A stretch of 64,000 nucleotides of DNA from Escherichia phage vB_EcoM_TU01. The stretch lies in sequence record MZ560701; one strand, given 5' to 3'. Shown here in pieces: positions 6,790 to 60,024 of the stretch. Positions within the stretch are counted from its first letter, which is position 1. Each line of letters starts with the position of its first letter. Made by a program: the position numbers and the translations under genes. A model generated the notes under the pieces. That model was not told the DNA's origin. It ran no database searches and saw only the letters and a program-made list of their open reading frames with translations.

Positions 6790-7095
6790 ATGAAATTAAC
6801 AGAAACCAATCGAATCGGTCTTTTAACAATATTTGCATCACCTTTTTACGCAGCCCTTTCTGTTGCAGTATTACAAAAGGCTTACGATATGGATGGTGTT
6901 CCTGGTTTTGTATTCTTATCGCCGTTTTTGCTATTCGTCGGAGCATTGTTATTATATGCCACGACTAGTTTCGACCATAATGTCTGGGTCAATTATAAAT
7001 GTAAATTGTCTGAAGAAGAACACGCAGAAGCTCGTAAAAAAGCTATTGAATCTACCAATCTAGAAAATTTCATTAAAGAATGTCGAGGAAAATAA
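6790..7095 (+). CDS. hypothetical membrane protein (101 aa)
   Basis: Two hydrophobic segments; gaggag RBS. Confidence 0.5.
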   Translation: MKLTETNRIGLLTIFASPFYAALSVAVLQKAYDMDGVPGFVFLSPFLLFVGALLLYATTSFDHNVWVNYKCKLSEEEHAEARKKAIESTNLENFIKECRGK

Positions 7096-7096
7096 T

Positions 7097-7783
7097 ATGA
7101 ATAGTTCTAAAGTGTTTAATAGTCAAGCTCGTGCAGTAGGTGGTTTTGCTGGCGGTATTTCTAATGATAAAATCAAAAACGAGCCTATGTTCTTNAACTG
7201 TAGTTTAGAATTTGCTTTTAATAATGGCGGNCCNATTACTCGTAGCTTCATCATGAACTTGCCGGATGATTGGAACACTGACCAGGTTGTATTTGATTCA
7301 CGAGTCCACATGCTGATGCCTGGTTGGTATCCTGCTATTCCTGGATATCACCATGANGACGTACCACGCCCTGATATTCCAGTTGGTCAACACTTTATTA
7401 CTGCAGGACAACCTGATTATGACAATCCTCGCTATTTGTCTGAACATATTCTTGGTCTTGTTAACGCTGACGTGTGTCCTACTCATTTTGCAACAGGAAC
7501 TGCAGAGTTCAGTCAGATTCCTGATGGCGAACTTATCTATCGTCAGTGGCACAAAGAAGTCCTCGAAAAAATTGAAAAAGGTGAACTAGAGAAATGGGAA
7601 GCTCCAGATCGTACTCTTCTTCAGTTTGATTGGCAAACATGGCACACNGGTTCTCGTGCAGTAAGTAATGGATGGCGCTGGTTCGGACGTGTATCTCGTA
7701 ATACAGACCGAGTTAAAAAGATTACCAATGAAATTCGTGTCAATGCTCAAGTTTATCTGGAATTCCCTATGGAAGGCTGGTAA
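7097..7783 (+). CDS. hypothetical protein (228 aa)
   Basis: ORF; HH-x-D...H residues noted but no fold assigned. Confidence 0.5.
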   Translation: MNSSKVFNSQARAVGGFAGGISNDKIKNEPMFXNCSLEFAFNNGXXITRSFIMNLPDDWNTDQVVFDSRVHMLMPGWYPAIPGYHHXDVPRPDIPVGQHFITAGQPDYDNPRYLSEHILGLVNADVCPTHFATGTAEFSQIPDGELIYRQWHKEVLEKIEKGELEKWEAPDRTLLQFDWQTWHXGSRAVSNGWRWFGRVSRNTDRVKKITNEIRVNAQVYLEFPMEGW

Positions 7784-8274
7784 TGATTAACAAAACATAT
7801 TGGTCTAATATAGACGATGGCAATGAAGGTATTTCATACTATTCAGTAGATTGGACAGGATGTCCATCCTACTTAGTGAAACATATTTGCCAAGAATTTA
7901 AAATCGACCAGCCAGCAGGTATTATCGTGAACAGATACATTAATGGATATCAACCTATCGATGAAGTAATACGAACAACTCAAGCTGAGCTTGAAANGTT
8001 TTTCAATAAGTGCCAATGGATAACAGGATGGATTATATTTGTACCGTCTATATGGTTTTTCAGTACTAAGGTGAGTTCTTTCGGTTTTGTTGATATTATT
8101 GCTATCTTATTAGCATCTAGTATCATAAGTGTTGTTGGTGGCATCATTGGCGGCGGTACTGCAGCCATCATTATTAATCTTGTTAAAAGTAGTTTACAGG
8201 AACGTAAAGACAAGATAAANGCCAAGAATAATGAAGTTGAACGTTTTATTACCGAATGCAGGAATTTGAGATGA
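7783..8274 (+). CDS. hypothetical membrane protein (163 aa)
   Basis: Hydrophobic core segments; start overlaps upstream stop. Confidence 0.5.
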   Translation: MINKTYWSNIDDGNEGISYYSVDWTGCPSYLVKHICQEFKIDQPAGIIVNRYINGYQPIDEVIRTTQAELEXFFNKCQWITGWIIFVPSIWFFSTKVSSFGFVDIIAILLASSIISVVGGIIGGGTAAIIINLVKSSLQERKDKIXAKNNEVERFITECRNLR

Positions 8275-11927: not shown

Positions 11928-12232
11928 TGACCACTATTGAAGTTTTTGAATATTGTTATAATAGCCCAGTATGCAATAAAAGGGCCCTTGTAGAAAATTA
12001 TGAGATTTACCATTTTAAACCTAAACGATATCGTTTGACTAAAGGTCCATTCGCAGGTCAGCAGGTTCTTTGTACTGCTCCTAATGCACGGTTGATGACT
12101 AGTATTCCGCATTTCAAAATGGAATTTATTGATGGGCCATTTAAGGGATTAATCACTCAAAGTTTAATGGCGTTTAATTCCGTCCCATTTTTGATTAAAG
12201 AAAAAACTTGGATAAATTTATTTTCTAATTGA
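11924..12232 (+). CDS. hypothetical protein (102 aa)
   Basis: ATG overlapping upstream stop. Confidence 0.45.
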   Translation: MMTTIEVFEYCYNSPVCNKRALVENYEIYHFKPKRYRLTKGPFAGQQVLCTAPNARLMTSIPHFKMEFIDGPFKGLITQSLMAFNSVPFLIKEKTWINLFSN

Positions 12233-12238
12233 GGTTAT

Positions 12239-12601
12239 ATGAAAGCATATCAAATTCTTGAAGGTGCACATAAAGGCACTATTTATTTTGAAGACGGTGC
12301 TCAAGCCCGGATTATTGTCTCTAAGACTTTTAAAGAAGACGCTATTGTAGACCCAGAAATTTTCTACGGTTTGAATGCCCGTGAAATTGAAATTGAACAT
12401 CAACCTAAAGTTAAAATTGAAGGTGGACAACATCTGAACGTTAACGTTCTGCGTCGTGAAACTCTGGAAGATGCAGTTAAGCATCCGGAAAAATATCCGC
12501 AGCTGACCATCCGTGTATCCGGTTATGCAGTTCGCTTTAACTCTCTGACTCCAGAACAGCAGCGCGACGTTATCGCTCGTACCTTTACTGAGAGTCTATA
12601 A
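12239..12601 (+). CDS. autonomous glycyl-radical cofactor (GrcA/YfiD-like; T4 Y06I-type)
   Basis: C-terminal [25 protein letters not shown] glycine-radical motif; C-terminal half very close to the E. coli GrcA sequence as recalled. Confidence 0.8.
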
Positions 12602-12825
12602 TGGCTAAATTGATTATAGAAGGGTCTGAAGATGTTTTAAAATGTTTTGCCGCCTGGTTTAGTTGCTCAGGCGAGCAATCATTCATTGAAGCATTTAGAA
12701 CGGGTGATATTACTGGAAAATATCCGTCAACCGATATCACTGTACGCGGATATGGTATTAATGAGCCTATCCAATTGGTCGAATACGACCTTGCCACCGA
12801 TGAGGAAATTCCTTATGTCGATTGA
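12601..12825 (+). CDS. hypothetical protein (74 aa)
   Basis: ORF, ATG overlaps upstream stop. Confidence 0.45.
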   Translation: MAKLIIEGSEDVLKCFAAWFSCSGEQSFIEAFRTGDITGKYPSTDITVRGYGINEPIQLVEYDLATDEEIPYVD

Positions 12826-13081
12826 AGACATCAAAGGCTACAAGCCGCATACCGATGATAAAATCGGTAAAGTGAACGCTATTAAAGATGCTGAAGTCCG
12901 TCTTGGATTGATGTTTGATGCTCTGATTGAAGAAGCATATATCTTGAAAGAAAATGAAACAGAGCAACAAACCAAAGAAGATATGGATGCAGTGCAGGCT
13001 CTTAAGTATGCTAAGCAACATCTAAAAGAAGCTAGTATGTGGGCGTGTCGTGCAGTATTTCGACCAGAGGAAAAATACTAA
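12815..13081 (+). CDS. hypothetical protein (88 aa)
   Basis: ATG 12815; track ORF 12647 start implausible because of overlap. Confidence 0.45.
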   Translation: MSIEDIKGYKPHTDDKIGKVNAIKDAEVRLGLMFDALIEEAYILKENETEQQTKEDMDAVQALKYAKQHLKEASMWACRAVFRPEEKY

Positions 13082-13296
13082 TGGCTTCTACTATTACTGG
13101 GTTATTGGACTTTCAAGAAAAGGTCAACAAAATTTGTAGTGAATACTTAAAGTATCTTGAAGAAGACNTTGAAGATTGTAAGGAAGAAGGCGAAGAAGAC
13201 TATGCTGACCAGCGTCGTCGCCAAATCGAAGAGATGAGGCATTTCGCCGATATGGTATCTAAAGAATCTTGGGCTTTAACTCCATTTTATCAATAA
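13081..13296 (+). CDS. hypothetical acidic protein (71 aa)
   Basis: ORF. Confidence 0.45.
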   Translation: MASTITGLLDFQEKVNKICSEYLKYLEEDXEDCKEEGEEDYADQRRRQIEEMRHFADMVSKESWALTPFYQ

Positions 13297-13300
13297 AGTA

Positions 13301-13329
13301 GTTTACTTCTCCTCTAGTTGTGTTACTAT
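13301..13329 (+). promoter_or_regulatory. early promoter
   Basis: GTTTAC, 17 nt, TACTAT then AGACCTTGTCAA. Confidence 0.55.
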
Positions 13330-13357
13330 AGACCTTGTCAACTAGAGGAGAAATCAA

Positions 13358-13816
13358 ATGACTATCAATTCAGACGTTTTTATCCGCCGTAATAAACTCC
13401 GTCGAATCTTTGAAACGGAGTTCCGCAAAATAAATGCCGGTATAAAAGATGCTGCAAAGTCTCTTGGACTACCAGGCTTTCATATCAAGTATTCTCAACA
13501 TCTCTTAGATCGTGCCATCCAGAGAGAAATAGATGAGAACTACGTTTTTGAATTATTTCGTAAAGTAAAAAATCATGTTAAAGAAGTTGCAGAATTTTTA
13601 TCAATGCCGGCACGTCCAGATGTTGATGAAGATTTTGTCGAAGGCGTCGAATATCGCCCAGGCCGTTTAGAAATAACTGACGGAAATCTTTGGTTAGGAC
13701 TTACAGTTTGTCGCGAAAATCCAGCATTCAAAATGAAGACTCTTCAATGCAGAATGGCTATTATTAACAGTAAACGACTACCAGGAAAAGCTTCTAAAGC
13801 AGTGATTAAAATCTAG
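13358..13816 (+). CDS. regB: RegB site-specific endoribonuclease
   Basis: Matches T4 RegB as recalled (MTIN...FIRRNKLRR...LEITDGNLWLG...CRMAIINS..LPGKASKAVIK); correct position after denV. Confidence 0.8.
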   Translation: MTINSDVFIRRNKLRRIFETEFRKINAGIKDAAKSLGLPGFHIKYSQHLLDRAIQREIDENYVFELFRKVKNHVKEVAEFLSMPARPDVDEDFVEGVEYRPGRLEITDGNLWLGLTVCRENPAFKMKTLQCRMAIINSKRLPGKASKAVIKI

Positions 13817-32676: not shown

Positions 32677-32979
32677 TAATGTACAACGATAGGAAGACAT
32701 GTTATTATCTTCCTATCGTCTTAAAATGAGGAAAATATCATGGCCCAAGAATTAGANNNNNNNNNNNNNNNNNNNNNNNNNNNNNNNNNNNNNNNNNNNN
32801 NNNNNNNNNNNNNNNNNTATGACATTTTAACAGATGCTATTACTGTTAGTTGTGGTGGAAANNNNNNNNNNNNNNNNNNNACTGAAAACAAATACCCAAT
32901 CTATAAAGGCATCTTTGATATGGGTGTTGATATTAGNNNNNNNNNNNNNNNNNNNNNNNNNNNNNNNNNNNNNAAATAA

Positions 32980-33940: not shown

Positions 33941-34498
33941 ATGACTGAACAAAAACCTAAAAATAACTATGTGAATAATAAAGAGCTTCTCGCCGCTATA
34001 ATCGAGTGGAAAAAGGAGCTCTTAAATAATAAAGACCCAAACAAAATTATTCGTCAGAATGATACCATCGGTTTAGCAATTATGCTTATCGCCGAAGGCC
34101 TGTCCAAACGTTTCAACTTTTCAGGATATACCCAGTCTTGGAAGCAGGAGATGATTGCAGATGGGATTGAAGCCTCTATTAAGGGACTTCATAATTTCGA
34201 CGAAACTAAGTACAATAACCCACATGCATACATAACTCGAGCTTGTTTTAATGCTTTTGTCCAACGTATCAAAAAAGAACGTAAGGAAGTTGCAAAGAAA
34301 TATAGTTACTTCGTTCATAATGTCTACGACAGTCATGACGATGATATGGTAGCGTTGGTAGATGAAACGTTTATTCAAGACATCTACGATAAAATGACGC
34401 ATTATGAAGAATCCGCTTATAAAGCTCCTGGGGCTGAAAAGAAGGAAGTTGTTAGCGATTCGCCTAGTTTGGATTTTTTATATGAGGATGACAATTGA
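33941..34498 (+). CDS. 55: late-transcription sigma factor gp55
   Basis: [51 protein letters not shown] closely matches T4 gp55. Confidence 0.95.
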
Positions 34499-34697
34499 CA
34501 TCTCTAACTACTTAGAAGAACCTTTTGACGAAGCAATCCCTTATTTGGTAAAACTGTTGGGTCGTGAATTTAAAATTAATTTTGACATCGACCCTTTGAA
34601 CCCACATGACGTGTCATTTTCGATAAATGGGACTCCGGTTGAGTATGAGTTCTGTATTGAAGAGGACGGACGTTTTTATTTTAATTTAATGAGATAA
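34482..34697 (+). CDS. hypothetical protein
   Basis: ORF overlapping the end of gene 55. Confidence 0.4.
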
Positions 34698-34698
34698 T

Positions 34699-35022
34699 AT
34701 GACTACCGAGATTATTGAAAATAAAGAAGCAGAAGATGCAGTAGCTAAAATGCTACAAGAAATCCAAANGAAAAATGAAGCTGAAGCACGTAAAAAATCC
34801 GAAAAGATTCTTAAAAAGAATCGTTTTGAACTAAACCGTCTTTATGCTCATGCTCAAGAAGCAGCAATTCAAAACAACTTCGAAGCTTACGAATATGCTA
34901 TTAAGAAATCTCGGGATATTCTACGACAACCATATAATGACAAGTTAATTAAAATCCAGTGGATTACTACTCGTCAGGCTATTGAGGACATCATTAATGG
35001 CGCTAGTTCAAACAAAGTTTAA
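34699..35022 (+). CDS. hypothetical protein (107 aa)
   Basis: ORF. Confidence 0.45.
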   Translation: MTTEIIENKEAEDAVAKMLQEIQXKNEAEARKKSEKILKKNRFELNRLYAHAQEAAIQNNFEAYEYAIKKSRDILRQPYNDKLIKIQWITTRQAIEDIINGASSNKV

Positions 35023-35203
35023 ACGTCTGAAGCTGAACGCAGGGTTCACCCTTAAATTGGGAGGTCCTCTTTGTGTTAAAATTTCTGAAAAGGAATATCA
35101 CGACGGTTCTATTACAGAAATTTGTCCGCCTATTGTAAAGGCAGACCCAAAACAACTCGTGTGGGTTGATTCATTTCAAGTTAAGAAATGGTGGAAACGA
35201 TGA
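34997..35203 (+). CDS. hypothetical protein (68 aa)
   Basis: ORF. Confidence 0.4.
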   Translation: MALVQTKFKRLKLNAGFTLKLGGPLCVKISEKEYHDGSITEICPPIVKADPKQLVWVDSFQVKKWWKR

Positions 35204-35242
35204 GAGAAATCGATTTAGGNNTTTTCTGAGAGGTGCTTATGC

Positions 35243-35416
35243 ATGACGAACGACCCGACCTCTGAAAATTTCGATAAAATCCGTAAAGGCAAAGCAGAAA
35301 GAATGAGACGTTTTAAAGAGTCTTATGATAAAGCTAAAGCCGAAGGAACTATTACATACAAGCCCATTCGATTTAAAAGTTCAAATGAGCCTCTGTACGG
35401 TGTACTATGTGGATAG
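35243..35416 (+). CDS. hypothetical small basic protein (57 aa)
   Basis: ORF below track cutoff, followed directly by a terminator. Confidence 0.35.
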   Translation: MTNDPTSENFDKIRKGKAERMRRFKESYDKAKAEGTITYKPIRFKSSNEPLYGVLCG

Positions 35417-35440
35417 GAACTCTTCGGAGTTCCTTTTTTG
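35416..35440 (+). terminator. rho-independent terminator
   Basis: ggaactc-ttcg-gagttcc then T6. Confidence 0.7.
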
Positions 35441-35462
35441 CTTTATAAACGGATGATAGAAT
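35436..35462 (+). promoter_or_regulatory. middle-type promoter (TGCTTTA, 11 nt, TAGAAT)
   Basis: MotA-box-like TGCTTTA at 35439-35445 upstream of gene 47. Confidence 0.45.
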
Positions 35463-35485
35463 GAATTAACTAATGAGGAAATAAT

Positions 35486-36505
35486 ATGAAAATTTTAAAT
35501 TTAGGTGATTGGCATTTAGGTGTTAAAGCCGATGATGAGTGGGTTCAATCCATTCAGTTGGATGGAATTAAACAAGCAATAGAATATTCTAAGAAAAANG
35601 GAATTACTACATGGATTCAATACGGCGATATTTTTGATGTGCGAAAAGCAATCACNCATAAAACTATGGANTTCGCNCGTGAAATAGTTCAAATGCTTGA
35701 TGATGCTGGTATTACCCTACATACTGTNGTAGGAAACCATGATATGCACTTTAAAAATACTTTAACTCCAAATGCTTCTACTGAGCTTTTGGCTAAATAT
35801 CCTAATGTTAAAGTATATGATAAGCCNACTACNGTAGATTTTGATGGATGTTTGATTGATTTAATTCCATGGATGTGTGAAGAAAATACAGGTGAAATCT
35901 TAGAGCACATCAAGACTTCTTCAGCAGCGTATTGTGTTGGGCACTGGGAACTGAATGGCTTTTATTTCTATAAAGGAATGAAGTCTCATGGGCTTGAACC
36001 TGATTTCTTAAAGACCTATAAACAAGTCTGGTCTGGCCACTTCCACACAATCTCTGAAGCTGCTAACGTCAAATATATTGGGACACCATGGACCCTTACT
36101 GCAGGCGATGAGAACGACCCTCGAGGATTCTGGGTATTTGACACTGATGTTGAACGTATGGAATTTATTCCTAATGAAACAACATGGCATCGACGAATCA
36201 CTTATCCGTTTAAAGGCAAAATCAATTATTCTGATTATACTAATCTAGCCGTACGTGTTATAGTATCAGAAATTGATTCAGAGTTGACTAAGTTTGAATC
36301 TGAACTTGAAAAAGTAGTTCACTCTCTTCGTATGGTTTCTAAAGTTGATAACAGTGTTGAATCTGATGATGACCAGGAAATCGAGATTAAATCACTTCAA
36401 GATATCATTAAAGAATATATTGACGCGATTCCAGATATCTCAGACGAAGACAGAGAAGCGCTGGTCAAATATTCCAACGAACTTTATATTGAGGCAACAC
36501 AATGA
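35486..36505 (+). CDS. 47: recombination nuclease subunit gp47 (Mre11-like)
   Basis: MKILNLGDWHLG phosphoesterase start; 339 aa; directly upstream of gp46. Confidence 0.9.
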   Translation: MKILNLGDWHLGVKADDEWVQSIQLDGIKQAIEYSKKXGITTWIQYGDIFDVRKAIXHKTMXFXREIVQMLDDAGITLHTXVGNHDMHFKNTLTPNASTELLAKYPNVKVYDKXTXVDFDGCLIDLIPWMCEENTGEILEHIKTSSAAYCVGHWELNGFYFYKGMKSHGLEPDFLKTYKQVWSGHFHTISEAANVKYIGTPWTLTAGDENDPRGFWVFDTDVERMEFIPNETTWHRRITYPFKGKINYSDYTNLAVRVIVSEIDSELTKFESELEKVVHSLRMVSKVDNSVESDDDQEIEIKSLQDIIKEYIDAIPDISDEDREALVKYSNELYIEATQ

Positions 36506-44878: not shown

Positions 44879-45514
44879 ATGAAAACTACTCCTATTACTA
44901 TCGCTATTGACGCAATCATAAAACAAGCTTCTTCTTTGGCCGCTATGGCCAAAGTAATTAGTCAAAACCCTGCTCGTTATAATGCTATTCTAGAAACTCT
45001 TCGACGCCCAGGACTTAGNAATTANGAAAGCCGAGTAATTATTACAGGTGTTGGTAAGAATGCTAATATTGCAACTAAAGCTTCTGAGACATTTGCTTCA
45101 CTCGGTATCCCGAGTATGTACTTGAACACCGGGCATTATTCTCACGGTGATGCAGGATTCATTGCGCCTAATGATGTGTTGATTCATATTAGTCGTTCTG
45201 GTAAAACTGAAGAAATGATAGGCGTTGCTAAGCATCTTAAAATGATTCGTCCGAACGTCAAACAGATTCTGTTGCATTGTAACCCAGACATTCCACAAGA
45301 AAATGAAGCCCTTTTTGATTACTCTTTCTGTACAGGCATCGCAGTAGAGGTTGATGAGAATTCTCTGGCTCCGACTATGTCCACTACATTGTTGTTAGCG
45401 CTTATCGATACTTTTGCTATCAACCTTTCGTCTGAGCGTGGATTTACCTCTAATGACTTCCTTAAGTTCCACCCTGGTGGTGCACTAGGTGCCATGTTAC
45501 GAGGCGAACAATGA
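44879..45514 (+). CDS. SIS-domain sugar-phosphate isomerase (arabinose-5-phosphate isomerase KdsD/GutQ-like, no CBS domains)
   Basis: ITGVGKN...HGDAG...SRSGKTEE...APTMSTT...FHPGGALG parallel the E. coli KdsD SIS domain. Confidence 0.8.
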   Translation: MKTTPITIAIDAIIKQASSLAAMAKVISQNPARYNAILETLRRPGLXNXESRVIITGVGKNANIATKASETFASLGIPSMYLNTGHYSHGDAGFIAPNDVLIHISRSGKTEEMIGVAKHLKMIRPNVKQILLHCNPDIPQENEALFDYSFCTGIAVEVDENSLAPTMSTTLLLALIDTFAINLSSERGFTSNDFLKFHPGGALGAMLRGEQ

Positions 45515-45654
45515 AAGCAATAACAATAGGACTTTTACTATTGATGCTTGTCATGACTATCTACTGGAGCTTAACGGCTCCAGTAATGATTCCAACACTT
45601 GTAATTGGATGGATTATGATTGGACTACAAGCAAAGTATGAATGCTTTAACTAG
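45511..45654 (+). CDS. small membrane peptide (47 aa)
   Basis: Hydrophobic ORF overlapping upstream stop. Confidence 0.35.
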   Translation: MKAITIGLLLLMLVMTIYWSLTAPVMIPTLVIGWIMIGLQAKYECFN

Positions 45655-45695
45655 AATAGTGTACAATACTCCTACTTACCAATGAGGACNNCAAC

Positions 45696-47381
45696 ATGAA
45701 AAAAGCTGTTATTCTTGGTGCTGGACTGGCAACTCGTTTGTATCCAATAACGCATCATATTCCTAAGGTGCTTGTTAACTATAAACAAGACACTATTCTG
45801 AGCAATTTGTATACAATTTATTCTGACCTTGGCGCAGATGAAATTATTGTAGTAGTTCATTCAAAATTTGCTGAAACTGTTCGAGCTTATTGTGAGCAAG
45901 AAGGGTTCAATGTGACTATTCGTACAGTTGATGAAGCGTATGGTTCTGCTTATGCTCTTGCTAAATTACACAAAGATTTAGACGGCCATAATGTAATTGT
46001 TAACTGGTGTGATATTATTCCTGATTTTGGTTCATGGTCTTGGAATGTTAACGCAATCTATGTTAAGGGTGATGAATGTCGATATAATTTCGACGGTGAA
46101 AATATCACTAACGTAGGTTCAACAGGTGGTAATGTTGTAGGAATTTATCAGTTCAAAGACTGGGAATTCTATATGGGTTCTACTGATGAGGAAATTCATG
46201 AATACTGCAAAGGACGTGATTTCGTAGAATTCCTTTACGGCAGCGCATTCAATAAATCAGAGCTTATGAATCTAATTGATTTAGGTGATATGCCTAAACT
46301 TGAAAAAGCTCATGAAGTTCGTGAACTTAATCGTAGTTTTAATGCAGTTGAAATTGGTGAAGAAACTGTAACTAAATTCGCATTAACCGAACAGGGTCGA
46401 GCTCTTCAGAAAGATGAGATTTCATGGTATCTTAAAGTGAAATCAGATTCAGTTCCTCAGTTAGTTTCTGTTAATGAAAATAACTTTGAAATGGAACGCA
46501 TTAAAGGTAAGCCGGCATTTGAATATATTAAATCCAAATCGAGTCTTGCTCGTCCACAAATTGTTGATGCAATTTTAGATGCACTGAAATTCAGCACAGA
46601 CACTTATTTTGTAAGTCCTGAAACTGTTCGTCGTGATTTCACTAAAGAATTCTATACGAAAGTTATTGATCGTTGTGAAAGTATTCAACCATTGATTGAT
46701 TCATTTGGTAAAATCACACATGTGAACTACACTAAGATTGGACGTCTGAAGCCAATGCTGAAACAAGCTTTAGAACACCTTATTCGTTATCATAACCGTT
46801 CTCAGGGACAGTACTCTGTTATTCATGGCGACCCGAACTTCAGTAATACTATGATTACTGATAACGGCGAAGTCAAGTTTATCGACCCTCGTGGATATTT
46901 TGGTGAAACCAAGATTTACGGGCCAAAATTGTACGATGAAGCTAAAGTGCTTTATGCTGTTTCAGGTTATGATGAATTCAACGCTAATCCGACCTGGGGA
47001 CAGTTTACTATTGACGAAACAACTTGTAATGTGACTATTAACATCAATCCATTAATTTACAAATATGGAAAGCTGAGTTCGTTTAACGAGTATCATCATT
47101 TGGCCGTAGCAATTATCTGGATTGCATTAGGTGGTTATTTCAAGAATAATCCACTTAAAGCGGTAGCCGCATATTATAAAGGTATGGAACTTCTGACTAA
47201 GCAATTACGTAACATGGGCCGTGTACTTCAAGACGGCTCTATTAGTTATGACGTAGCAGAACCTGTAACGGCTACTCTGATTACAAAAAATCCTGGTAAA
47301 TGGGTACTAACTGATAAAGAAACTGGTGTTTCCTATCGTCCAATCGGTGGCGATATCACTCATCAATGGGAACGAATCTAA
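45696..47381 (+). CDS. bifunctional sugar-1-phosphate nucleotidyltransferase / APH-ChoK-like kinase
   Basis: N-terminal ILGAGLATRL (GxGTRL sugar-NTase motif); C-terminal HGDPNFSN...KFIDP (kinase catalytic loop). Confidence 0.75.
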   Translation: MKKAVILGAGLATRLYPITHHIPKVLVNYKQDTILSNLYTIYSDLGADEIIVVVHSKFAETVRAYCEQEGFNVTIRTVDEAYGSAYALAKLHKDLDGHNVIVNWCDIIPDFGSWSWNVNAIYVKGDECRYNFDGENITNVGSTGGNVVGIYQFKDWEFYMGSTDEEIHEYCKGRDFVEFLYGSAFNKSELMNLIDLGDMPKLEKAHEVRELNRSFNAVEIGEETVTKFALTEQGRALQKDEISWYLKVKSDSVPQLVSVNENNFEMERIKGKPAFEYIKSKSSLARPQIVDAILDALKFSTDTYFVSPETVRRDFTKEFYTKVIDRCESIQPLIDSFGKITHVNYTKIGRLKPMLKQALEHLIRYHNRSQGQYSVIHGDPNFSNTMITDNGEVKFIDPRGYFGETKIYGPKLYDEAKVLYAVSGYDEFNANPTWGQFTIDETTCNVTININPLIYKYGKLSSFNEYHHLAVAIIWIALGGYFKNNPLKAVAAYYKGMELLTKQLRNMGRVLQDGSISYDVAEPVTATLITKNPGKWVLTDKETGVSYRPIGGDITHQWERI

Positions 47382-47767
47382 TGCACCGTGTAGAAAACAT
47401 GCTTAATCTTTGTTTTGATGTCGATGATTGTATAACAGAGTGGAATAACAATCGTGATTACGTGAACTTCAAGCCGGACGTCGAAATGGTGAATGCCATT
47501 AATGCCCTGTATGATGCAGGGCACACAATAACGCTTTACACTGCTCGCGGTATGAAGTCAGTAGGTCCTGGTCGTATAGCAATTGACATTCTCCCAAGTC
47601 TTATTCAGAACTTGGCAAACATTGGCTTGAAGTACCATAATTTGCTAACACATAAACCAGTATATGATTGGATTATCGACGACAAAGCTATGCGTCCTGA
47701 CGAATTCAAAGCTCTTATGAATAAAGGCGAATTCGAAACATTTAAATCATATAAACCGAATCTATAA
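47380..47767 (+). CDS. HAD-family phosphatase
   Basis: DxDx motif CFDVDDCIT near N-terminus; small KdsC-like size. Confidence 0.65.
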
Positions 47768-47821
47768 TAATTTAAGTAAGACCTGCAAAAACCATCGCAT
47801 CAATTAACGCGAGATGCAAAA

Positions 47822-48982
47822 ATGAATACTTTTAAAATCGGAACGAATTTTGATTTAGCTCTTCTTGATAAAATCGTAGAGCTCAATAAAACTTATCCTA
47901 ATAGCTTGATAAACGAAGTATATGGCTCTACAAGAGAAATGGCTTTTGTAGCAGCCAGACCTGATTTTAGGCTTCCTGACGTTGACAAAAAGATGTTAGA
48001 AGATTACGTTAAACGTTGTAACGAATTAGGTATTTGCTTTAACTATACACTCAACACGATAAATCCTGGTTCAAAAAGAGAACTAGTTGAGTGGAAGAAG
48101 AAAGCTATTCAGGACTATGTTCAGTATCTTTGGTCAATAGGCGTATGGCGTATTACTATCGCTAACCCTGTTGTTATGGAAATTGTTCGTGAAGTCAATA
48201 AAGACATTGAGATTGAAGTTTCAACAATTTTACATGTCGATGCTGTAACTCAAATCAAATACTTACATGACCAGTATAATATCAAAAAGGTCTGCTGTGG
48301 AATTCATAAGAACCGTTCAGTTTCTTTCCTGAAGCGTGCAGCAGAGTTTTGCAATAAGAACAATATAATATTTGAAGTTCTTGTAAATGAGTTCTGTTCT
48401 AATGCTGGTAAAGGGTATACAACACATTGTAGCTATCGTGACTCTTGCTATATTTTCCATAGTACTGATGTTACAGCTGATGATGCTAAATCCTTAAATG
48501 GATATCCTATGCAGCACTGTATTAAAGCTCGTGATACAGACCCATTTAACTGGTTGAGAACTCGTTTTGTTCGTCCACAAGATTTGAAACTTTATAATGA
48601 TATTGGTATCACTCAATTTAAAGTTTCGGGACGTACAGGTAGCACCGACTACATTTTGAAAGTTCTTGAAGCTTATGCTTCTGAAAAGTTTGAAGGTAAT
48701 TTGTTGGAATTGTGGAAGCCTTTAGAGACCATTTTCACTCTTGAAAATGAGACCGAGTTTTCACATACGGTAAATATTGAAACCTCTTTGTTAGACGGCT
48801 TTTTAGAAAAAAGGTGGTTCAGACATCCGGATTTCGATTGTGCTAATGAAATCTGCGGGACGACGTGTACATATTGTGAAAGATATTATAAACGTCAGTT
48901 ATCTAAAAATGGGTTATCAGAAAATTCTATATCTATTATTGATATAACTAACTCTGACGACGCTTTGAGGTACCCAGAATGA
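47822..48982 (+). CDS. Cys-rich enzyme of unknown function (386 aa)
   Basis: Long ORF; Cys clusters EFCSNAGKGYTTHCSYRDSC and CANEICGTTCTYC. Confidence 0.6.
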   Translation: MNTFKIGTNFDLALLDKIVELNKTYPNSLINEVYGSTREMAFVAARPDFRLPDVDKKMLEDYVKRCNELGICFNYTLNTINPGSKRELVEWKKKAIQDYVQYLWSIGVWRITIANPVVMEIVREVNKDIEIEVSTILHVDAVTQIKYLHDQYNIKKVCCGIHKNRSVSFLKRAAEFCNKNNIIFEVLVNEFCSNAGKGYTTHCSYRDSCYIFHSTDVTADDAKSLNGYPMQHCIKARDTDPFNWLRTRFVRPQDLKLYNDIGITQFKVSGRTGSTDYILKVLEAYASEKFEGNLLELWKPLETIFTLENETEFSHTVNIETSLLDGFLEKRWFRHPDFDCANEICGTTCTYCERYYKRQLSKNGLSENSISIIDITNSDDALRYPE

Positions 48983-49216
48983 TTTCTAGAAAAACTTTTA
49001 ACCACCAACTTAATGAAGAGATTTTGACTATAAAAATTAACAGCAACGAACAAATTCTTAAAAAGGCCCTTATGGGCCTGTTTGAAACTAAAGCGGCTAA
49101 AGCGATTAAAGAAACCTGTTCAACTAGAATACTATGCCGACGCATTCCTTCATAGTGTCCTTGGAAGTATTGATGCCGAAGCTCTACGTTATATCAACAT
49201 CGCTAAGAAATTCAAA

Positions 49217-49242
49217 TAAGCTTTATGAATTGAGTATATAAT
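49217..49242 (+). promoter_or_regulatory. middle-type promoter (GCTTTA, 11 nt, TATAAT)
   Basis: Upstream of gene 42. Confidence 0.45.
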
Positions 49243-49261
49243 AAACTGTATTGAGGTAAAC

Positions 49262-49978
49262 ATGGGAAAACATAACACAATGAAATATATTAAAGCCGCA
49301 GATTTTCAATCCGCATTTAAAGCTGTCAATCGTGAAATTTTAGAAAACCCAGAATTCGTAACTGATTCTCGTATTGGACGTTGTAATGAAATTGGGTCTA
49401 TGACAGTAGTTGTTGACACTCCATCATCATTCAAAATGACCGACCCACGTATTAACCGCATCTCTTATGAATATGCCGAAGATTTCTGGAAATTTATGAT
49501 TTCTGGCGGNACTGANGCAGAAGAAGCATTTAAGGCATATCCTAATGTCGCTAAATTTATTTCTAAACCAAAATCAGACGCTTTGCCTGCGAACTTCAAC
49601 ACTTTCTATGGTCCTCGCATTGCGGCCCAATTACCAGCTCTTCTAAAAGAACTTAAAGAGAAGCCTAACTCTCGAAGAGTTGTGTTCCAAATTCTTGAAA
49701 GTTCTGATCAGGCTTTGCTTGATTCGGACGAAACGCTTGAATATCCATGTACTGACTCAGTGACTTATTATATTCGTGATGGTAAGCTTTATACCCACTG
49801 TCATATGCGTTCCCAGAACTGTGCTGTTGTTATGCAGTTGGATTTTTATCTCCAAGGAAAATTACTTCATTATATCGCTAAAGAATGCGGTGTAGAAGTT
49901 GGTGATTATACTCATACCATGGTAAGTGCCCATGTGTTTGAACGTGATTTTGATTATGTTAAAGGATTCCTTGACTAA
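49262..49978 (+). CDS. 42: dCMP hydroxymethylase (thymidylate-synthase fold)
   Basis: Syntenic with T4 gene 42; candidate nucleophile in EYPCTDSVTYY; diverged from T4. Confidence 0.75.
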   Translation: MGKHNTMKYIKAADFQSAFKAVNREILENPEFVTDSRIGRCNEIGSMTVVVDTPSSFKMTDPRINRISYEYAEDFWKFMISGXTXAEEAFKAYPNVAKFISKPKSDALPANFNTFYGPRIAAQLPALLKELKEKPNSRRVVFQILESSDQALLDSDETLEYPCTDSVTYYIRDGKLYTHCHMRSQNCAVVMQLDFYLQGKLLHYIAKECGVEVGDYTHTMVSAHVFERDFDYVKGFLD

Positions 49979-50877
49979 TGGCTATTTTCCGCGTACCTAT
50001 CTTGAGTATGCGGTCTTATGAAACCGGACAGTATGCTATCCTTAAGGATGGCAACTTCCAACTTCATTTGCACCGTGCTAATCCGGGTGATGTGATTACA
50101 TATCCACGTAATGCATCTGATATTAAAGAATGTGAACGTCTTTTCCCAGAATTTAAGTTTGTTCCATTATGGTATAAAGATAACGCGTATAACACTCGTA
50201 AATATTTCTGGTCTGAAAATGAATTTGTGGTTGATTCATTAATTGCTTATTATGATTGTGATTTTCTAATCACAGATATCACTGGATATGACGGAGCTTT
50301 TGATGTAGAATTCAATTTCAATATCACTGCAGACCCTAATAAACCACGTTTTTATATTGACGAATTCTTAAAAACCGACATGTTGTCGGTTAATCGTTCA
50401 CTTCAAACTACTGTGTTGAATGAACGTCAAAAAGAAGTGCTGGTTAACGCTGGTGCAGATGGTAATAAGATTATCGTAACCCAGAAAGTTATACGTCCTT
50501 CCATCATGCAGCGTCTTGTAGGTGATTTGGCTCCTATTCATCTAGATGGTATTTTTCATCCATTTCGAATTAGTGACCCGTGCTATCGTTTTGAACAAGT
50601 GGTTGAATGTGCAATTCAATTAGGTCAACCGCTTTATGTAACCGATCCAAATAATAGTTTCGATAGAAATAAGTATCCTGAAGAAGCGCTGATTCGAATT
50701 TTTAAACCAACTAAAACTGAGTACTATCAAATTCTTAAAGGACGGCCGAAGATTCAATATTTCGAAAATCCTGAAGAAGTATTCCATCCAGGTCTTGGCG
50801 AGTTCATCTACTTTAATGCTTTAATTTCTTCACCGTATAATATACCTAAATACGAAGATGTCGTAATCGAGGAATAA
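49978..50877 (+). CDS. hypothetical protein at the beta-glucosyltransferase position (candidate DNA sugar transferase)
   Basis: 299 aa ORF directly after gene 42; no similarity to T4 beta-gt recognised. Confidence 0.5.
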   Translation: MAIFRVPILSMRSYETGQYAILKDGNFQLHLHRANPGDVITYPRNASDIKECERLFPEFKFVPLWYKDNAYNTRKYFWSENEFVVDSLIAYYDCDFLITDITGYDGAFDVEFNFNITADPNKPRFYIDEFLKTDMLSVNRSLQTTVLNERQKEVLVNAGADGNKIIVTQKVIRPSIMQRLVGDLAPIHLDGIFHPFRISDPCYRFEQVVECAIQLGQPLYVTDPNNSFDRNKYPEEALIRIFKPTKTEYYQILKGRPKIQYFENPEEVFHPGLGEFIYFNALISSPYNIPKYEDVVIEE

Positions 50878-50878
50878 A

Positions 50879-51427
50879 ATGGCTAAAATTATTTTAGTAG
50901 ATGGCCCGGATAATGCTGGTAAAACAACTTTCATTAATGATATAATGGAAATTAGTGAAAGATATGTAAAGATTGATTTCCCTAAACGAACAGTTGATGG
51001 ACGTTTCGATGTTAAGTCTCGAAATGAAGTTGGCTGTTTCGAAACGATGTTGAATTATTTAGACCCTACTAAGATTTATCTGTTAGACCGTGGATATATT
51101 AGTAACTGGGTTTATGGACGTATTCGACAAGATGCGGACTCGGTTCTTGACGTTTATGAACAGGATTATGTTCGTCTTTGCCAAAACCATGATGTGTTCA
51201 CAATTATTTTAACACGTAACGAAATGACTGAAAGTTTTGAAGACGACCTTATTACTTTGTCTTCATTCGGTTTTAATACAGTCATTTCACATTTTGAAGA
51301 GTTTGCAATTCATAACAAAATCCAAACGTATCAATTACTTAATCATGATGGTGCTAACAAAGTTATAGGATTTAATGCAAGCGAACGTAATTATTTGATT
51401 ACAGAAATTATCAAATGGGCTCGTTAA
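50879..51427 (+). CDS. P-loop kinase-like protein
   Basis: Walker A GPDNAGKTT at N-terminus; 182 aa. Confidence 0.55.
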   Translation: MAKIILVDGPDNAGKTTFINDIMEISERYVKIDFPKRTVDGRFDVKSRNEVGCFETMLNYLDPTKIYLLDRGYISNWVYGRIRQDADSVLDVYEQDYVRLCQNHDVFTIILTRNEMTESFEDDLITLSSFGFNTVISHFEEFAIHNKIQTYQLLNHDGANKVIGFNASERNYLITEIIKWAR

Positions 51428-56526: not shown

Positions 56527-56820
56527 ATGAAAAAGTTATCATTGGCAGCAATCTTACTTGCAGTATCATGTGCACCAGCTCCAGTTACGGCAGGTTATGA
56601 TAAAGACCTCTGTGAGTGGTCAATGACTGCAAATCAAGAAGATGTTGAACAACAAATCTTCTCTGATATCATGAACATCACTAAACGAGACCGTCCTAAT
56701 ATGGTTAATAAAGTTGTTGAACAACTTAAGTCTGGCGGTATCATGCAGTACAATTATGTTTTGTATTGTGACCCTAATTTCGATAACAAAGATATCGTAA
56801 CCGAAATCACAGGTGAATAA
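56527..56820 (+). CDS. secreted protein (97 aa)
   Basis: Signal peptide MKKLSLAAILLAVSCAPAPVTA. Confidence 0.55.
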   Translation: MKKLSLAAILLAVSCAPAPVTAGYDKDLCEWSMTANQEDVEQQIFSDIMNITKRDRPNMVNKVVEQLKSGGIMQYNYVLYCDPNFDNKDIVTEITGE

Positions 56821-56821
56821 T

Positions 56822-57472
56822 ATGATTTATTATATGCACAAAAATGCGCCATTTAAATATGGTAAATTTCCTAATGCACAATGTTATAATATAACGCCGA
56901 ATGAAAATAATAACGGATACCATATTGGTGTAATTTTTGTAATTGTTAAAGATAACGAAATCGTTGCCTGGGCAGATTTTAAAGGTACAACATATGATGT
57001 TAATCCAGTGCCTTTCACATATTACAACATAATGGATTTGGCATATGATTATAACTGGTTTAATCATGACGCGTTGGCTCATATTGAAGGTGTAGGATTT
57101 GACATCTCTTATTCTAGCTATTCATTATGTCCTATGAGCCGAGCTCACGGTAAAGATGCATCATATCTTTCAATTCGGAAACGTGTAAACTTCAAACGTA
57201 GCACAGAGTATGTTGGTGGACTCTTTGTTAAAGATAATAAAATAACCCGTATTAGTTATCCTTTAAGTGTAGGTCAAAAAGATGTTGATGTTGATTTAGA
57301 CTTAACCGAAAATAACATTAATCATATTGCTTCTGTATATTTTGATATCGATGAAAAAATTGTAGTGTGTGGATACGAATTACCACCTGAAGAAAAGGCT
57401 GAAGCAATTGAAGTCGAATTAGAAATTTCTGTTGATGACCAAATATTTAATGCATTTATGAATCGAGGTTAA
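56822..57472 (+). CDS. hypothetical protein (216 aa)
   Basis: ATG 56822; ORF. Confidence 0.5.
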   Translation: MIYYMHKNAPFKYGKFPNAQCYNITPNENNNGYHIGVIFVIVKDNEIVAWADFKGTTYDVNPVPFTYYNIMDLAYDYNWFNHDALAHIEGVGFDISYSSYSLCPMSRAHGKDASYLSIRKRVNFKRSTEYVGGLFVKDNKITRISYPLSVGQKDVDVDLDLTENNINHIASVYFDIDEKIVVCGYELPPEEKAEAIEVELEISVDDQIFNAFMNRG

Positions 57473-59502: not shown

Positions 59503-60024
59503 ATGGCACACTTTAACGAATGTTCACAACTTATTTCTGGTGTTGATAAAGCAGAAGAAGCTTATTTTAATGCTCTGATTCACGAAGATAAAGACCCACT
59601 GCAGGTAATGCTTGATATGCAGAAATCTTTACAGGTTCGTCTGGCAAATGACAAGCCTGAACATAACAAACATCCTGATGAATTGGCCACTGCTGGTGAT
59701 GTTGTTGATTGGCTGCGTAATCAGAAAGATTATATTGATGATGAATTCCGTGAACTGCTGACTTCACTTGGTGGTATGAGCAATGGCGAAAAAGCCGCTA
59801 GCTCTGTATGGAAGCCGTGGAAAGCACAACATGCTGAATATCGAAATCGTCGTATCGATGAACTGTCTCCTGAAGACCAGCTTGAAATTAAATTCGAGAT
59901 GATTGATATNCTGCACTTTGTTCTGAATATGTTCCAAGGTCTGGGTCTTTCGGCTGAAGAAATCTTTAAACTTTACTACTTGAAAAACCAACACAACTTT
60001 GAACGCCAGGATAATGGTTACTGA
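59503..60024 (+). CDS. 56: dCTPase/dUTPase gp56 (MazG-like)
   Basis: MAHFNEC...DPLQVMLDMQ...DELATAGDVVDWLR...IDDEFRELLTSLG closely matches T4 gp56. Confidence 0.9.
   Translation: MAHFNECSQLISGVDKAEEAYFNALIHEDKDPLQVMLDMQKSLQVRLANDKPEHNKHPDELATAGDVVDWLRNQKDYIDDEFRELLTSLGGMSNGEKAASSVWKPWKAQHAEYRNRRIDELSPEDQLEIKFEMIDXLHFVLNMFQGLGLSAEEIFKLYYLKNQHNFERQDNGY

Follow-up and report, generated by a model that had tools for sequence, protein, structure and literature searches.

The RB69-type lineage very probably carries arabinosylated 5-hydroxycytosine in its DNA instead of the hmC-glucose chemistry of T4, with a different gene cassette at the place of T4 gene 42 and beta-gt. Both T4 glucosyltransferase genes thus appear to be missing because the cytosines are 5-hydroxylated and arabinosylated by that cassette. 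That RB69 and its relatives lack the T4 glucosyltransferases and have arabinosyl chemistry is already known (published in 2018 and in 2025-2026). RB69 DNA contains arabinose, not glucose, and the T4 glucosyltransferases are absent (PMC6024577); the modified base, as determined by NMR, is beta-D-Araf-(1-3)-alpha-D-Araf-5-hydroxy-dC (PMC13326640), and the same base chemistry occurs in Mosigvirus NP (PMC13390438). Our own observations concern the gene content and synteny, the absence of T4 glucosyltransferases, the fold of a 299-aa protein, the D169N signature, and the near-identity to an HY126 enzyme. The base chemistry and the activities of RB69 gp48, AfhE, and AfhF are from the literature on homologs, not from the DNA of this phage, and would apply to it by analogy.

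The window, which is the whole stretch of DNA that was analyzed, comprises 64 kb of the roughly 169-kb genome of Escherichia phage vB_EcoM_TU01. Judged by its sequence, the source phage is a Mosigvirus, a T-even phage of the RB69/JS09 type. The gene order is collinear with that of RB69, and across both regions described below the DNA is 98 to 99% identical to that of JS09 and about 98% identical to that of RB69; JS09 is the closest genome (98.8% identical).

T4 has three genes, mobB, a-gt (400 aa), and 47.1, in the space from a-gt.2 to gene 47. The corresponding interval of the window, all on the + strand, is as follows.

33941-34498, +: gene 55, late sigma factor, bounding the alpha-gt slot on the left (ORF; annotated as gene 55 in records that are 95 to 98% identical and in RB69)
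34482-34697, +: a-gt.5 ortholog, 71 aa, DUF5491 (47% identical to T4 a-gt.5; Pfam DUF5491 E = 5.8e-13)
34699-35022, +: a-gt.4 ortholog, 107 aa, DUF2654 (58% identical to T4 a-gt.4; Pfam DUF2654 E = 9e-28)
34997-35203, +: a-gt.3 ortholog, 68 aa (71% identical to T4 a-gt.3)
35243-35416, +: a-gt.2 ortholog, 57 aa, DUF5486 (76% identical to T4 a-gt.2; Pfam DUF5486 E = 4.5e-28)
35415-35441, +: intrinsic-terminator-like hairpin, AGGAACTC-TTCG-GAGTTCCT then TTTTT (sequence and terminator scan)
35486-36505, +: gene 47, SbcD-like nuclease subunit, bounding the alpha-gt slot on the right (84% identical to T4 gp47)

As the preliminary description had stated, the interval between genes 55 and 47 holds four small ORFs of 57 to 107 aa and no others; all four are orthologs of T4 a-gt.5, a-gt.4, a-gt.3, and a-gt.2. 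In the window, a-gt.2 and gene 47 are not separated by any gene of some 400 aa. The place of mobB, a-gt, and 47.1 is taken by 70 bp, from the end of a-gt.2 at 35416 to the start of gene 47 at 35486, and these consist of the terminator hairpin plus about 45 bp and nothing else. The PhAPEC2 records also carry an annotated "terminator" feature. The claim that neither T4 position has a gene the size of a glucosyltransferase was therefore correct for the alpha-gt slot but misleading for the beta-gt position, at which a 299-aa GT-B glycosyltransferase is encoded.

A tblastn search of the 64-kb window with T4 alpha-gt and beta-gt gave nothing better than E = 1.7 to 3 (3.0 was the best value for alpha-gt). 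The window is 64 kb out of roughly 169 kb, which leaves room for a T4-type alpha-gt or beta-gt gene elsewhere in the phage genome. However, when the remaining 105 kb of JS09 were searched along with the window, nothing better than E = 1.4 was found, and the RB69 gp3 homolog, used as a positive control, was recovered at 99.7% identity; in addition, RB69 has no alpha-gt or beta-gt homologs (PMC6024577, PMC13326640). The probability that such a gene lies beyond the window is therefore vanishingly small, and the earlier view that T4-type enzymes do not glucosylate this DNA is supported for the window and the rest of JS09.

In place of the whole T4 segment from gene 43 to uvsX (imm.1, imm, 42, beta-gt, and segA), the window has a cassette of 6.6 kb at 44879-51427. 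Its genes, together with gene 56, are listed below.

44879-45514, +: arabinose-5-phosphate isomerase, RB69 gp55 homolog, first cassette gene after gene 43 (Pfam SIS; NCBIfam KpsF/GutQ E = 2e-32 and KdsD E = 6e-31; RB69 annotation)
45696-47381, +: bifunctional sugar-1-phosphate nucleotidyltransferase and kinase, 561 aa, RB69 gp52:53, like AfhE of HY126 (Pfam and NCBIfam matches)
47366-47767, +: HAD-type sugar phosphatase, 133 aa, RB69 gp51, AfhF-like (NCBIfam EcbF-BcbF capsule biosynthesis phosphatase E = 2.8e-13, which falls short of the curated cutoff; PMC13326640)
47822-48982, +: U32-family protein, 386 aa, RB69 gp50, candidate prephenate-dependent, O2-independent hydroxylase (Pfam Peptidase_U32 E = 7e-11)
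48979-49155, +: gp49-like small ORF (DNA alignment with Bas46 and RB69)
49262-49978, +: ThyA-family protein, 238 aa, RB69 gp48 homolog, previously "gene 42", putative 5-hydroxy-dCMP synthase (25% identical to T4 gp42; about 99% identical to PDB 9iqc/9ir2/9iqu)
49978-50877, +: GT-B glycosyltransferase, 299 aa, RB69 gp46:47 homolog, at the T4 beta-gt position, proposed first (alpha) arabinosyltransferase on 5-hydroxycytosine
50879-51427, +: P-loop nucleotide kinase, 182 aa, RB69 gp45, thymidylate-kinase-like (only weak P-loop and dTMP-kinase matches; RB69 annotation)
about 59503-60024, +: gene 56, dCTPase/dUTPase (Pfam dUTPase_2 at the C terminus; collinear with RB69p028, gene 56)

The window thus has, grouped together from gene 43 to uvsX, the arabinose-5-phosphate isomerase, the bifunctional kinase/nucleotidyltransferase, the HAD phosphatase, the ThyA homolog with D169N, the GT-B enzyme, and the P-loop kinase. 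This is the arabinosyl-5-hydroxycytosine cluster of RB69 and other Mosigvirus phages, which is represented by RB69 gp45-gp55 plus gp3, by the Afh genes of HY126, and by Bas46 and Bas47. The DNA is 98 to 99% identical, and the genes run in the same order from gene 43 to uvsX; common to the cluster and the window are the ThyA homolog (D169N), the 299-aa glycosyltransferase, the kinase, the U32 protein, the HAD phosphatase, the bifunctional enzyme, and the isomerase. The window differs in that gp3 lies outside it and the gp49-like ORF is frameshifted: an extra A near 49112 shortens this ORF, which in relatives encodes 79 aa and ends at the equivalent of 49218. In the RB69 GenBank record the genes for the 299-aa and 561-aa proteins are split, reportedly by sequencing errors, whereas both are intact in the window.

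The preliminary description had taken the gene at 49262-49978 for a retained dCMP hydroxymethylase, with hmC still being made; this did not hold up. The product shares 25% identity with T4 gp42, whereas its neighbors gp47 and UvsX share 84% and 67%, respectively, with the corresponding T4 proteins. With PDB 9iqc/9ir2/9iqu its identity is about 99% (E = 5e-160 to 9iqc/9ir2), and these entries belong to the same deposit series as the "phage HY126 glycosyltransferase" structures 9iqz/9ir0. Asp169 of E. coli ThyA, an Asp that S. aureus TS likewise has in the alignment, is replaced by Asn ("MRSQN...LD" in the window protein versus "MRSND...ND" in T4 gp42; the E. coli ThyA motif is "QRSCD...FN"), and N177D is present as well. 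The D169N replacement also occurs in the distant homologs of contigs L006 and L007, whereas T4 gp42 and E. coli ThyA keep the Asp. Replacement of Asp169 by Asn is diagnostic of flavin-dependent 5-hydroxy-dCMP synthases (PMC13326640). The gene is collinear with RB69p048, the gene that was assayed; its product, the near-identical gp48, makes 5hodC (243 Da) in vivo, using O2 and flavin and deriving the oxygen from O2 (PMC13326640). The low identity to gp42, the near-identity to the HY126-series structures, and D169N together indicate that, as judged by homology, the enzyme is a 5-hydroxy-dCMP synthase, and hence that 5-hydroxycytosine, not hmC, would be made.

The enzyme nevertheless resembles T4 gp42 in its ThyA fold, dCMP substrate, N177D, and map position. 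Membership in the thymidylate synthase family (Pfam E = 1.8e-15), the N177D change, which is common to dCMP-specific enzymes, and the label "dCMP hydroxymethylase" in many GenBank records would all fit a true hydroxymethylase, with hmC left bare or modified in a way unlike that of T4; indeed, arabinosyl-hmC was the base originally inferred in 2018 (PMC6024577). T4 gp42 hydroxymethylates with methylene-tetrahydrofolate, whereas enzymes of the window type hydroxylate with flavin and O2 (PMC13326640). The low identity to gp42, the D169N signature, and the in vivo product of RB69 gp48, however, all argue against hmC. Furthermore, NMR gave an ether link directly to C5, and the hmC assignment has been termed erroneous (PMC13390438). 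An hmC-making enzyme is already contradicted by published chemistry, and we consider it highly improbable here. "Gene 42" of Mosigvirus phages, which is routinely labeled dCMP hydroxymethylase or thymidylate synthase, should then be read as a 5-hydroxy-dCMP synthase, and this is a warning for annotators. Likewise, predictions of sensitivity to restriction or CRISPR should assume arabinosyl-5-hydroxycytosine, not hmC or glucosyl-hmC; BrxU, an enzyme of the GmrSD family, cleaves arabinosyl-5-hydroxycytosine DNA (PMC13390438).

Immediately downstream of the ThyA-family gene is the gene for the GT-B-fold enzyme, a real and intact ORF of 299 aa. Its family could not be assigned by sequence, since searches of Pfam and NCBIfam and a PDB sequence-profile search gave no match; the fold was identified by structure prediction only. 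In the predicted model, which is of high confidence, the protein has a GT-B fold, and its best matches are retaining GT4-type enzymes. The top structural matches, 6kih and 3c4q, are also those of RB69 gp46:47 (PMC13326640). That the protein might be a diverged beta-gt was ruled out at the sequence and profile levels by tblastn and hhalign, the latter giving the 299-aa family a probability of 0.1 to 0.2% against beta-gt and alpha-gt (0.2% for alpha-gt). In fold, the protein lies nearer to GT4-type retaining enzymes and to alpha-gt, and beta-gt does not rank among its best matches. The protein was first described as having no resemblance to T4 beta-gt; this is true of its sequence and profile, but it is still a GT-B glycosyltransferase at the beta-gt position.

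The 299-aa protein shares with T4 beta-gt (CAZy GT63) and alpha-gt (CAZy GT72) the GT-B fold and, in its proposed role, dependence on a UDP-sugar and decoration of the C5 substituent of cytosine in phage DNA; like beta-gt, it is encoded immediately downstream of a ThyA-family gene. It has no detectable sequence or profile similarity to either enzyme, and the donor and acceptor, according to the literature, would be UDP-arabinofuranose and the 5-hydroxyl instead of the UDP-glucose and 5-hydroxymethyl of T4. We propose that it fills the role of beta-gt but uses another sugar and another acceptor. Both gp46:47 and gp3 have been proposed as arabinosyltransferases, the first transfer might take place on either the nucleotide or DNA, and single DLP3 glycosyltransferases had no activity on 5hoC DNA (PMC13326640). 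We infer that the 299-aa protein performs the first arabinosyl transfer, which may take place on DNA or on the nucleotide. The "hypothetical protein" adjoining gene 42 is thus a candidate DNA glycosyltransferase.

The same protein could instead be a UDP-pentose pyrophosphorylase, which would activate the sugar, with transfer to the base made by another protein, for example by gp3 alone. Its homolog TH1_063 of phage Thanatos, 47% identical over the full length, reportedly yielded a mass peak of UDP-xylose when supplied in vitro with UTP and xylose-1-phosphate (PMC12838424). But the fold is GT-B, and the top matches are all glycosyltransferases or epimerases, with no nucleotidyltransferases. A dedicated nucleotidyltransferase domain is already present in the cassette, and HY126 AfhE, the homolog of that nucleotidyltransferase, makes UDP-arabinose (PMC13326640). 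Thanatos DNA has one pentose, and TH1_063 is the sole glycosyltransferase encoded; moreover, the trio of ThyA, glycosyltransferase, and kinase genes is kept in jumbo-phage contigs. We therefore regard a pyrophosphorylase as unlikely and retain the arabinosyltransferase assignment. The P-loop kinase gene follows the glycosyltransferase gene in L006 and L007.

In the proposed pathway, dCMP would be supplied by the gene 56 dCTPase, which, as had been claimed, is retained (Pfam dUTPase_2 match). The ThyA-like enzyme (49262-49978) would convert dCMP to 5-hydroxy-dCMP by C5 hydroxylation with flavin and O2, and the product would be phosphorylated and then enter DNA in place of dC. UDP-arabinofuranose would come from the arabinose-5-phosphate isomerase, the bifunctional kinase/uridylyltransferase, and the HAD phosphatase. 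The bifunctional protein has a Pfam NTP_transferase match at residues 3 to 99 and weak APH/kinase matches at 308 to 409; by analogy with its homolog (PMC13326640), it would make UDP-arabinofuranose. The first alpha-arabinofuranose would be placed on the 5-hydroxyl by the 299-aa GT-B enzyme (49978-50877), and the second arabinose would be added by a second glycosyltransferase, the homolog of RB69 gp3. No gp3 homolog is encoded in the 64-kb window; in JS09 it is located at 167653-168753, between gene 39 and rIIA.1, about 7.6 kb past the right end of the window. From its relatives, this phage would be expected to have it at the same place.

The U32-family protein of the cassette suggests a further possibility. 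It is 79 to 87% identical across phage genera, had no match in a PDB search, and has homologs in huge phage contigs among genes of deoxynucleotide metabolism. A CM_2 chorismate mutase gene immediately follows the U32 gene in 51 related phage records and separates it from the ThyA-like gene, and DAHP synthase occurs in 212 phage records with host-genus counts that almost match those of the U32 gene; both are absent from the window. Chorismate mutase makes prephenate, and DAHP synthase is the enzyme through which the shikimate pathway is entered. Among the Acinetobacter phages with the rest of the modification pathway, whose hosts are strict aerobes, the U32 gene is absent or very rare. The link to chorismate mutase and DAHP synthase in related phages suggests that the U32 protein could be a prephenate-dependent, oxygen-independent hydroxylase.

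The E. coli O2-independent hydroxylases RlhA, TrhP, and UbiU/UbiV share the Pfam U32 domain with the phage protein, and the chorismate mutase neighbor in related phages may point to a link to prephenate. Of the cysteines of the phage protein, C192 and C209 line up with two Fe-S ligands of UbiU, C169 and C176. The other two, C203 and C233, do not vary in the phage family, but their positions do not correspond to C193 and C232 of UbiU (for the four-cysteine U32 Fe-S motif, see PMC6747719). The phage protein also differs in its low identity to the E. coli enzymes (18 to 19%), its cysteine spacing, and an extra C-terminal CX4CX3CX2C. RlhA makes 5-hydroxycytidine in 23S rRNA (PMC5727448).

It is possible, although we put this forward tentatively, that the cassette has two alternative routes to 5-hydroxycytosine, one through the ThyA-like synthase with O2 and flavin and the other through an O2-independent, prephenate-dependent U32 hydroxylase. 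If so, there would be a parallel with E. coli, which has paired pathways both in ubiquinone synthesis (UbiI/H/F versus UbiU/V) and in the formation of tRNA ho5U (TrhO versus TrhP), and gut phages could maintain full modification of their DNA when the host is anoxic. The U32 enzyme would then be the first prephenate-dependent hydroxylase with a nucleotide or DNA substrate, and the shikimate-pathway genes in these phages would be explained. The connection among U32, chorismate mutase, and DAHP synthase may be new.

The gp49-like ORF was considered as a diverged chorismate mutase and rejected, having neither a CM_2 match nor similarity to the chorismate mutase of Klebsiella phages. Because the gp49-like and chorismate mutase genes are in tandem in Yersinia phage TG1 and Serratia phage 92A1, the two are different proteins.

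Searching the window with tblastn for T4 alpha-gt and beta-gt gave a best E value of 1.7. The search was extended to the three parts of the genome of JS09, the closest relative, that lie outside the window's coverage; the best E value for the window plus these parts was 1.4. The observation of the preliminary description, that neither T4 position holds a T4-type glucosyltransferase gene, is confirmed. The positive control, the second glycosyltransferase of RB69 (gp3), was recovered in JS09 at 167653-168753 with 99.7% identity. This gene lies ∼7.6 kb beyond the window's right end, and no gp3 homolog was found in the window. The alpha-gt and beta-gt regions of the window are both 98 to 99% identical to those of JS09 and ∼98% identical to those of RB69 and many other Mosigvirus genomes, and the genes from 55 to srd are collinear with those of RB69. 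RB69 likewise lacks the T4 glucosyltransferases (Thomas et al. 2018, PMC6024577; Lee et al. 2026, PMC13326640), and the biology of RB69 and its relatives is already published.

The alpha-gt position lies between the end of gene 55 (34498) and the start of gene 47 (35486). The earlier account of four small ORFs in this interval was accurate: all are orthologs of T4 genes, namely a-gt.5, a-gt.4, a-gt.3, and a-gt.2 (47%, 58%, 71%, and 76% identity, respectively), and three of the four match the corresponding Pfam DUF families. The T4 transcript order is 55, a-gt.5, a-gt.4, a-gt.3, a-gt.2, mobB, a-gt, 47.1, 47. The last three T4 genes ahead of 47 (mobB, a-gt, and 47.1) are missing from the window's interval, and their slot is reduced to 70 bp with a strong terminator-like hairpin (35415-35441).

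In T4, the segment containing beta-gt has the order 43, imm.1, imm, 42, b-gt, segA, uvsX. In contrast, the entire gene 43-uvsX interval of the window is filled by an arabinosyl-5-hydroxycytosine cassette. segA is absent, and imm and imm.1, which in T4 separate gene 43 from gene 42, are relocated near sp and gene 61 in RB69-type phages.

Genes of the cassette between gene 43 and uvsX (positions in the window)
44879-45514, arabinose-5-phosphate isomerase
45696-47381, nucleotidyltransferase plus kinase, 561 aa
47366-47767, HAD-type phosphatase
47822-48982, U32-family protein
48979-49155, gp49-like small ORF
49262-49978, ThyA homolog
49978-50877, 299-aa protein
50879-51427, P-loop kinase

Compared with Bas46 and RB69, which read AAAGAACC, the gp49-like ORF (48979-49218) has one additional A near 49112 (AAAGAAACC) and is consequently shortened (58 aa versus 79 aa). 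The extra A could be a genuine frameshift or a homopolymer sequencing error.

The ThyA homolog, which had been taken for gene 42, has 25% identity to T4 gp42 over 218 residues; for gp47 and UvsX, identity to the T4 proteins is 84% and 67%, respectively. It is ∼99% identical to PDB chains 9iqc, 9ir2, and 9iqu, whose codes are in one series with the "phage HY126 glycosyltransferase" entries 9iqz and 9ir0, and Lee et al. refer to a flavin-bound crystal structure of the HY126 enzyme (PMC13326640). An Asp169-to-Asn change (E. coli ThyA numbering) is diagnostic of 5-hydroxy-dCMP synthases and was validated on nine further enzymes (PMC13326640). The motif at position 169 is MRSQN in the window protein versus MRSND in T4 gp42 and QRSCD in E. 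coli ThyA. The window's protein has the N177D change as well. RB69 gp48, its homolog, produces 5-hydroxy-dC in vivo, O2 being the oxygen source, and NMR placed an alpha-arabinofuranose at the C5 oxygen (PMC13326640); the earlier hmC assignment has been termed erroneous (PMC13390438). Given these results, the D169N signature, and the low identity to gp42, the earlier inference of continued hmC synthesis is unsupported. The retention of dCTPase was correctly noted, gene 56 being present.

The 299-aa protein at the beta-gt position had no match in Pfam or NCBIfam, and its hhalign probabilities against the T4 alpha-gt and beta-gt profiles were 0.1 to 0.2%, i.e., no similarity. However, a confident AlphaFold2 model (44 homologs as input; pLDDT, 94.7; pTM, 0.89) predicts a GT-B glycosyltransferase, and the top-ranked Foldseek match was the retaining enzyme MshA (3c4q). 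RB69 gp46:47, its homolog, has the same top structural matches and is the proposed "arabinosyltransferase 1" (PMC13326640). Thus, the lack of resemblance to beta-gt stands, but the position holds a predicted glycosyltransferase after all, of the same fold superfamily and a different family. The 47% identity to Thanatos TH1_063, reported to be a UDP-xylose pyrophosphorylase in vitro, would suggest instead a UDP-pentose pyrophosphorylase, but this role is unlikely because the modeled fold is GT-B and a dedicated nucleotidyltransferase is already encoded in the cassette; the HY126 homolog of that enzyme, AfhE, produces UDP-arabinose (PMC13326640). The preliminary interpretation is therefore partly supported: T4-type glucosyltransferases are absent, but the base is probably 5-hydroxycytosine rather than hmC, and a predicted glycosyltransferase occupies the beta-gt position.

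The family of this putative glycosyltransferase was found in 348 phage records, nearly always adjoining the ThyA homolog. Two homologs (35 to 37% identity) come from a 383-kb and a 356-kb contig, which both retain the trio of ThyA homolog (Asn at 169), glycosyltransferase, and P-loop kinase. Near the trio on these jumbo-phage contigs is a Flavodoxin_2 (FMN reductase-like) gene (L006:6426-6932 and L007:1-523), which might provide the hydroxylase with reduced flavin and fits a flavin-dependent enzyme; the window's cassette has no Flavodoxin_2 gene. Lee et al. could not tell whether the first arabinosyl transfer is to the nucleotide or to DNA (PMC13326640).

The U32-family protein (47822-48982) appears in Lee et al. 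only under the label "sugar or heterocycle reductase" and is never discussed (PMC13326640); it was seemingly termed an epimerase in PMC13390438. The U32 family includes the O2-independent, prephenate-dependent hydroxylases UbiU/UbiV, TrhP, and RlhA, the last of which produces 5-hydroxycytidine in 23S rRNA (PMC5727448, PMC6599085, PMC6747719, PMC10990095). Five observations link the phage protein to this chemistry. First, its conservation greatly exceeds that of the remaining cassette (79 to 87% identity across genera versus 47 to 70% for the glycosyltransferase). Second, a type II chorismate mutase gene is directly downstream of the U32 gene in 51 phage records (e.g., related loci L012:5001-6403 and L008:36927-38317), with hosts in Klebsiella, Serratia, Yersinia, Edwardsiella, Enterobacter, Erwinia, Pectobacterium, Providencia, Morganella, and Shewanella; the two mutases scanned gave Pfam CM_2 scores of 39.5 and 34.7 bits, and in Thanatos the U32 gene is elsewhere in the cluster with the adjacency kept. 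This adjacency points to prephenate-dependent, O2-independent hydroxylation; in the literature searched, no paper was found that connects phage U32 proteins with chorismate mutase. Third, DAHP synthase, the first shikimate-pathway enzyme, is encoded beside dCMP deaminase in JS09 and 211 other phage records, and its host-genus counts (Escherichia, 124; Klebsiella, 25; Shigella, 12; Proteus, 7; Serratia, 6; Enterobacter, 4) almost match those of the U32 gene (136, 26, 14, 7, 7, and 4, respectively). Fourth, Acinetobacter is a strict aerobe, and its phages have 57 glycosyltransferase records versus ≤3 U32 records. The published DLP3 cluster is also without the U32 gene (PMC13326640). Fifth, U32 homologs with 50 to 58% identity on very large phage-like contigs neighbor genes for dCMP deaminase, thymidylate kinase, UDG, NT5C, deoxynucleoside kinase, and nucleoside deoxyribosyltransferase.

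The UbiU Fe-S ligands C169 and C176 each have an aligned cysteine in the U32 protein; two further cysteines of this protein are invariant in the phage family with a spacing unlike that of UbiU, and there is an additional C-terminal four-cysteine motif. The gene is not obligatory, since ∼40 Escherichia phages have the glycosyltransferase without it. We tentatively put the U32 protein forward as a candidate for an O2-independent route to 5-hydroxycytosine.

The JS09 DAHP synthase gene (L016:35700-36692) is outside the window, immediately upstream of dCMP deaminase. A metagenomic contig (L010) has two U32-family genes (7001-8098 and 12227-13360) among genes for NT5C, deoxynucleoside kinase, a radical SAM/SPASM protein, and a nucleoside deoxyribosyltransferase-like protein, and may be another nucleotide-modification island.

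In total, 270 positions of the window are N. Runs at 32757-32817, 32862-32880, and 32937-32973 are all within one small ORF of the 55.x region, which precedes gene 55; single Ns are scattered, many inside genes (e.g., 47, uvsX, and the ThyA homolog). Arabinosylated DNA is published to give poor nanopore base calls, to which the Ns might be linked. Finally, the T4 gp61.2 homolog, a 219-aa ORF at 56813-57472, has a Pfam match to AdfA (anti-DarT factor A; E = 3e-120) and is a counter-defense gene unrelated to the glucosyltransferase finding.
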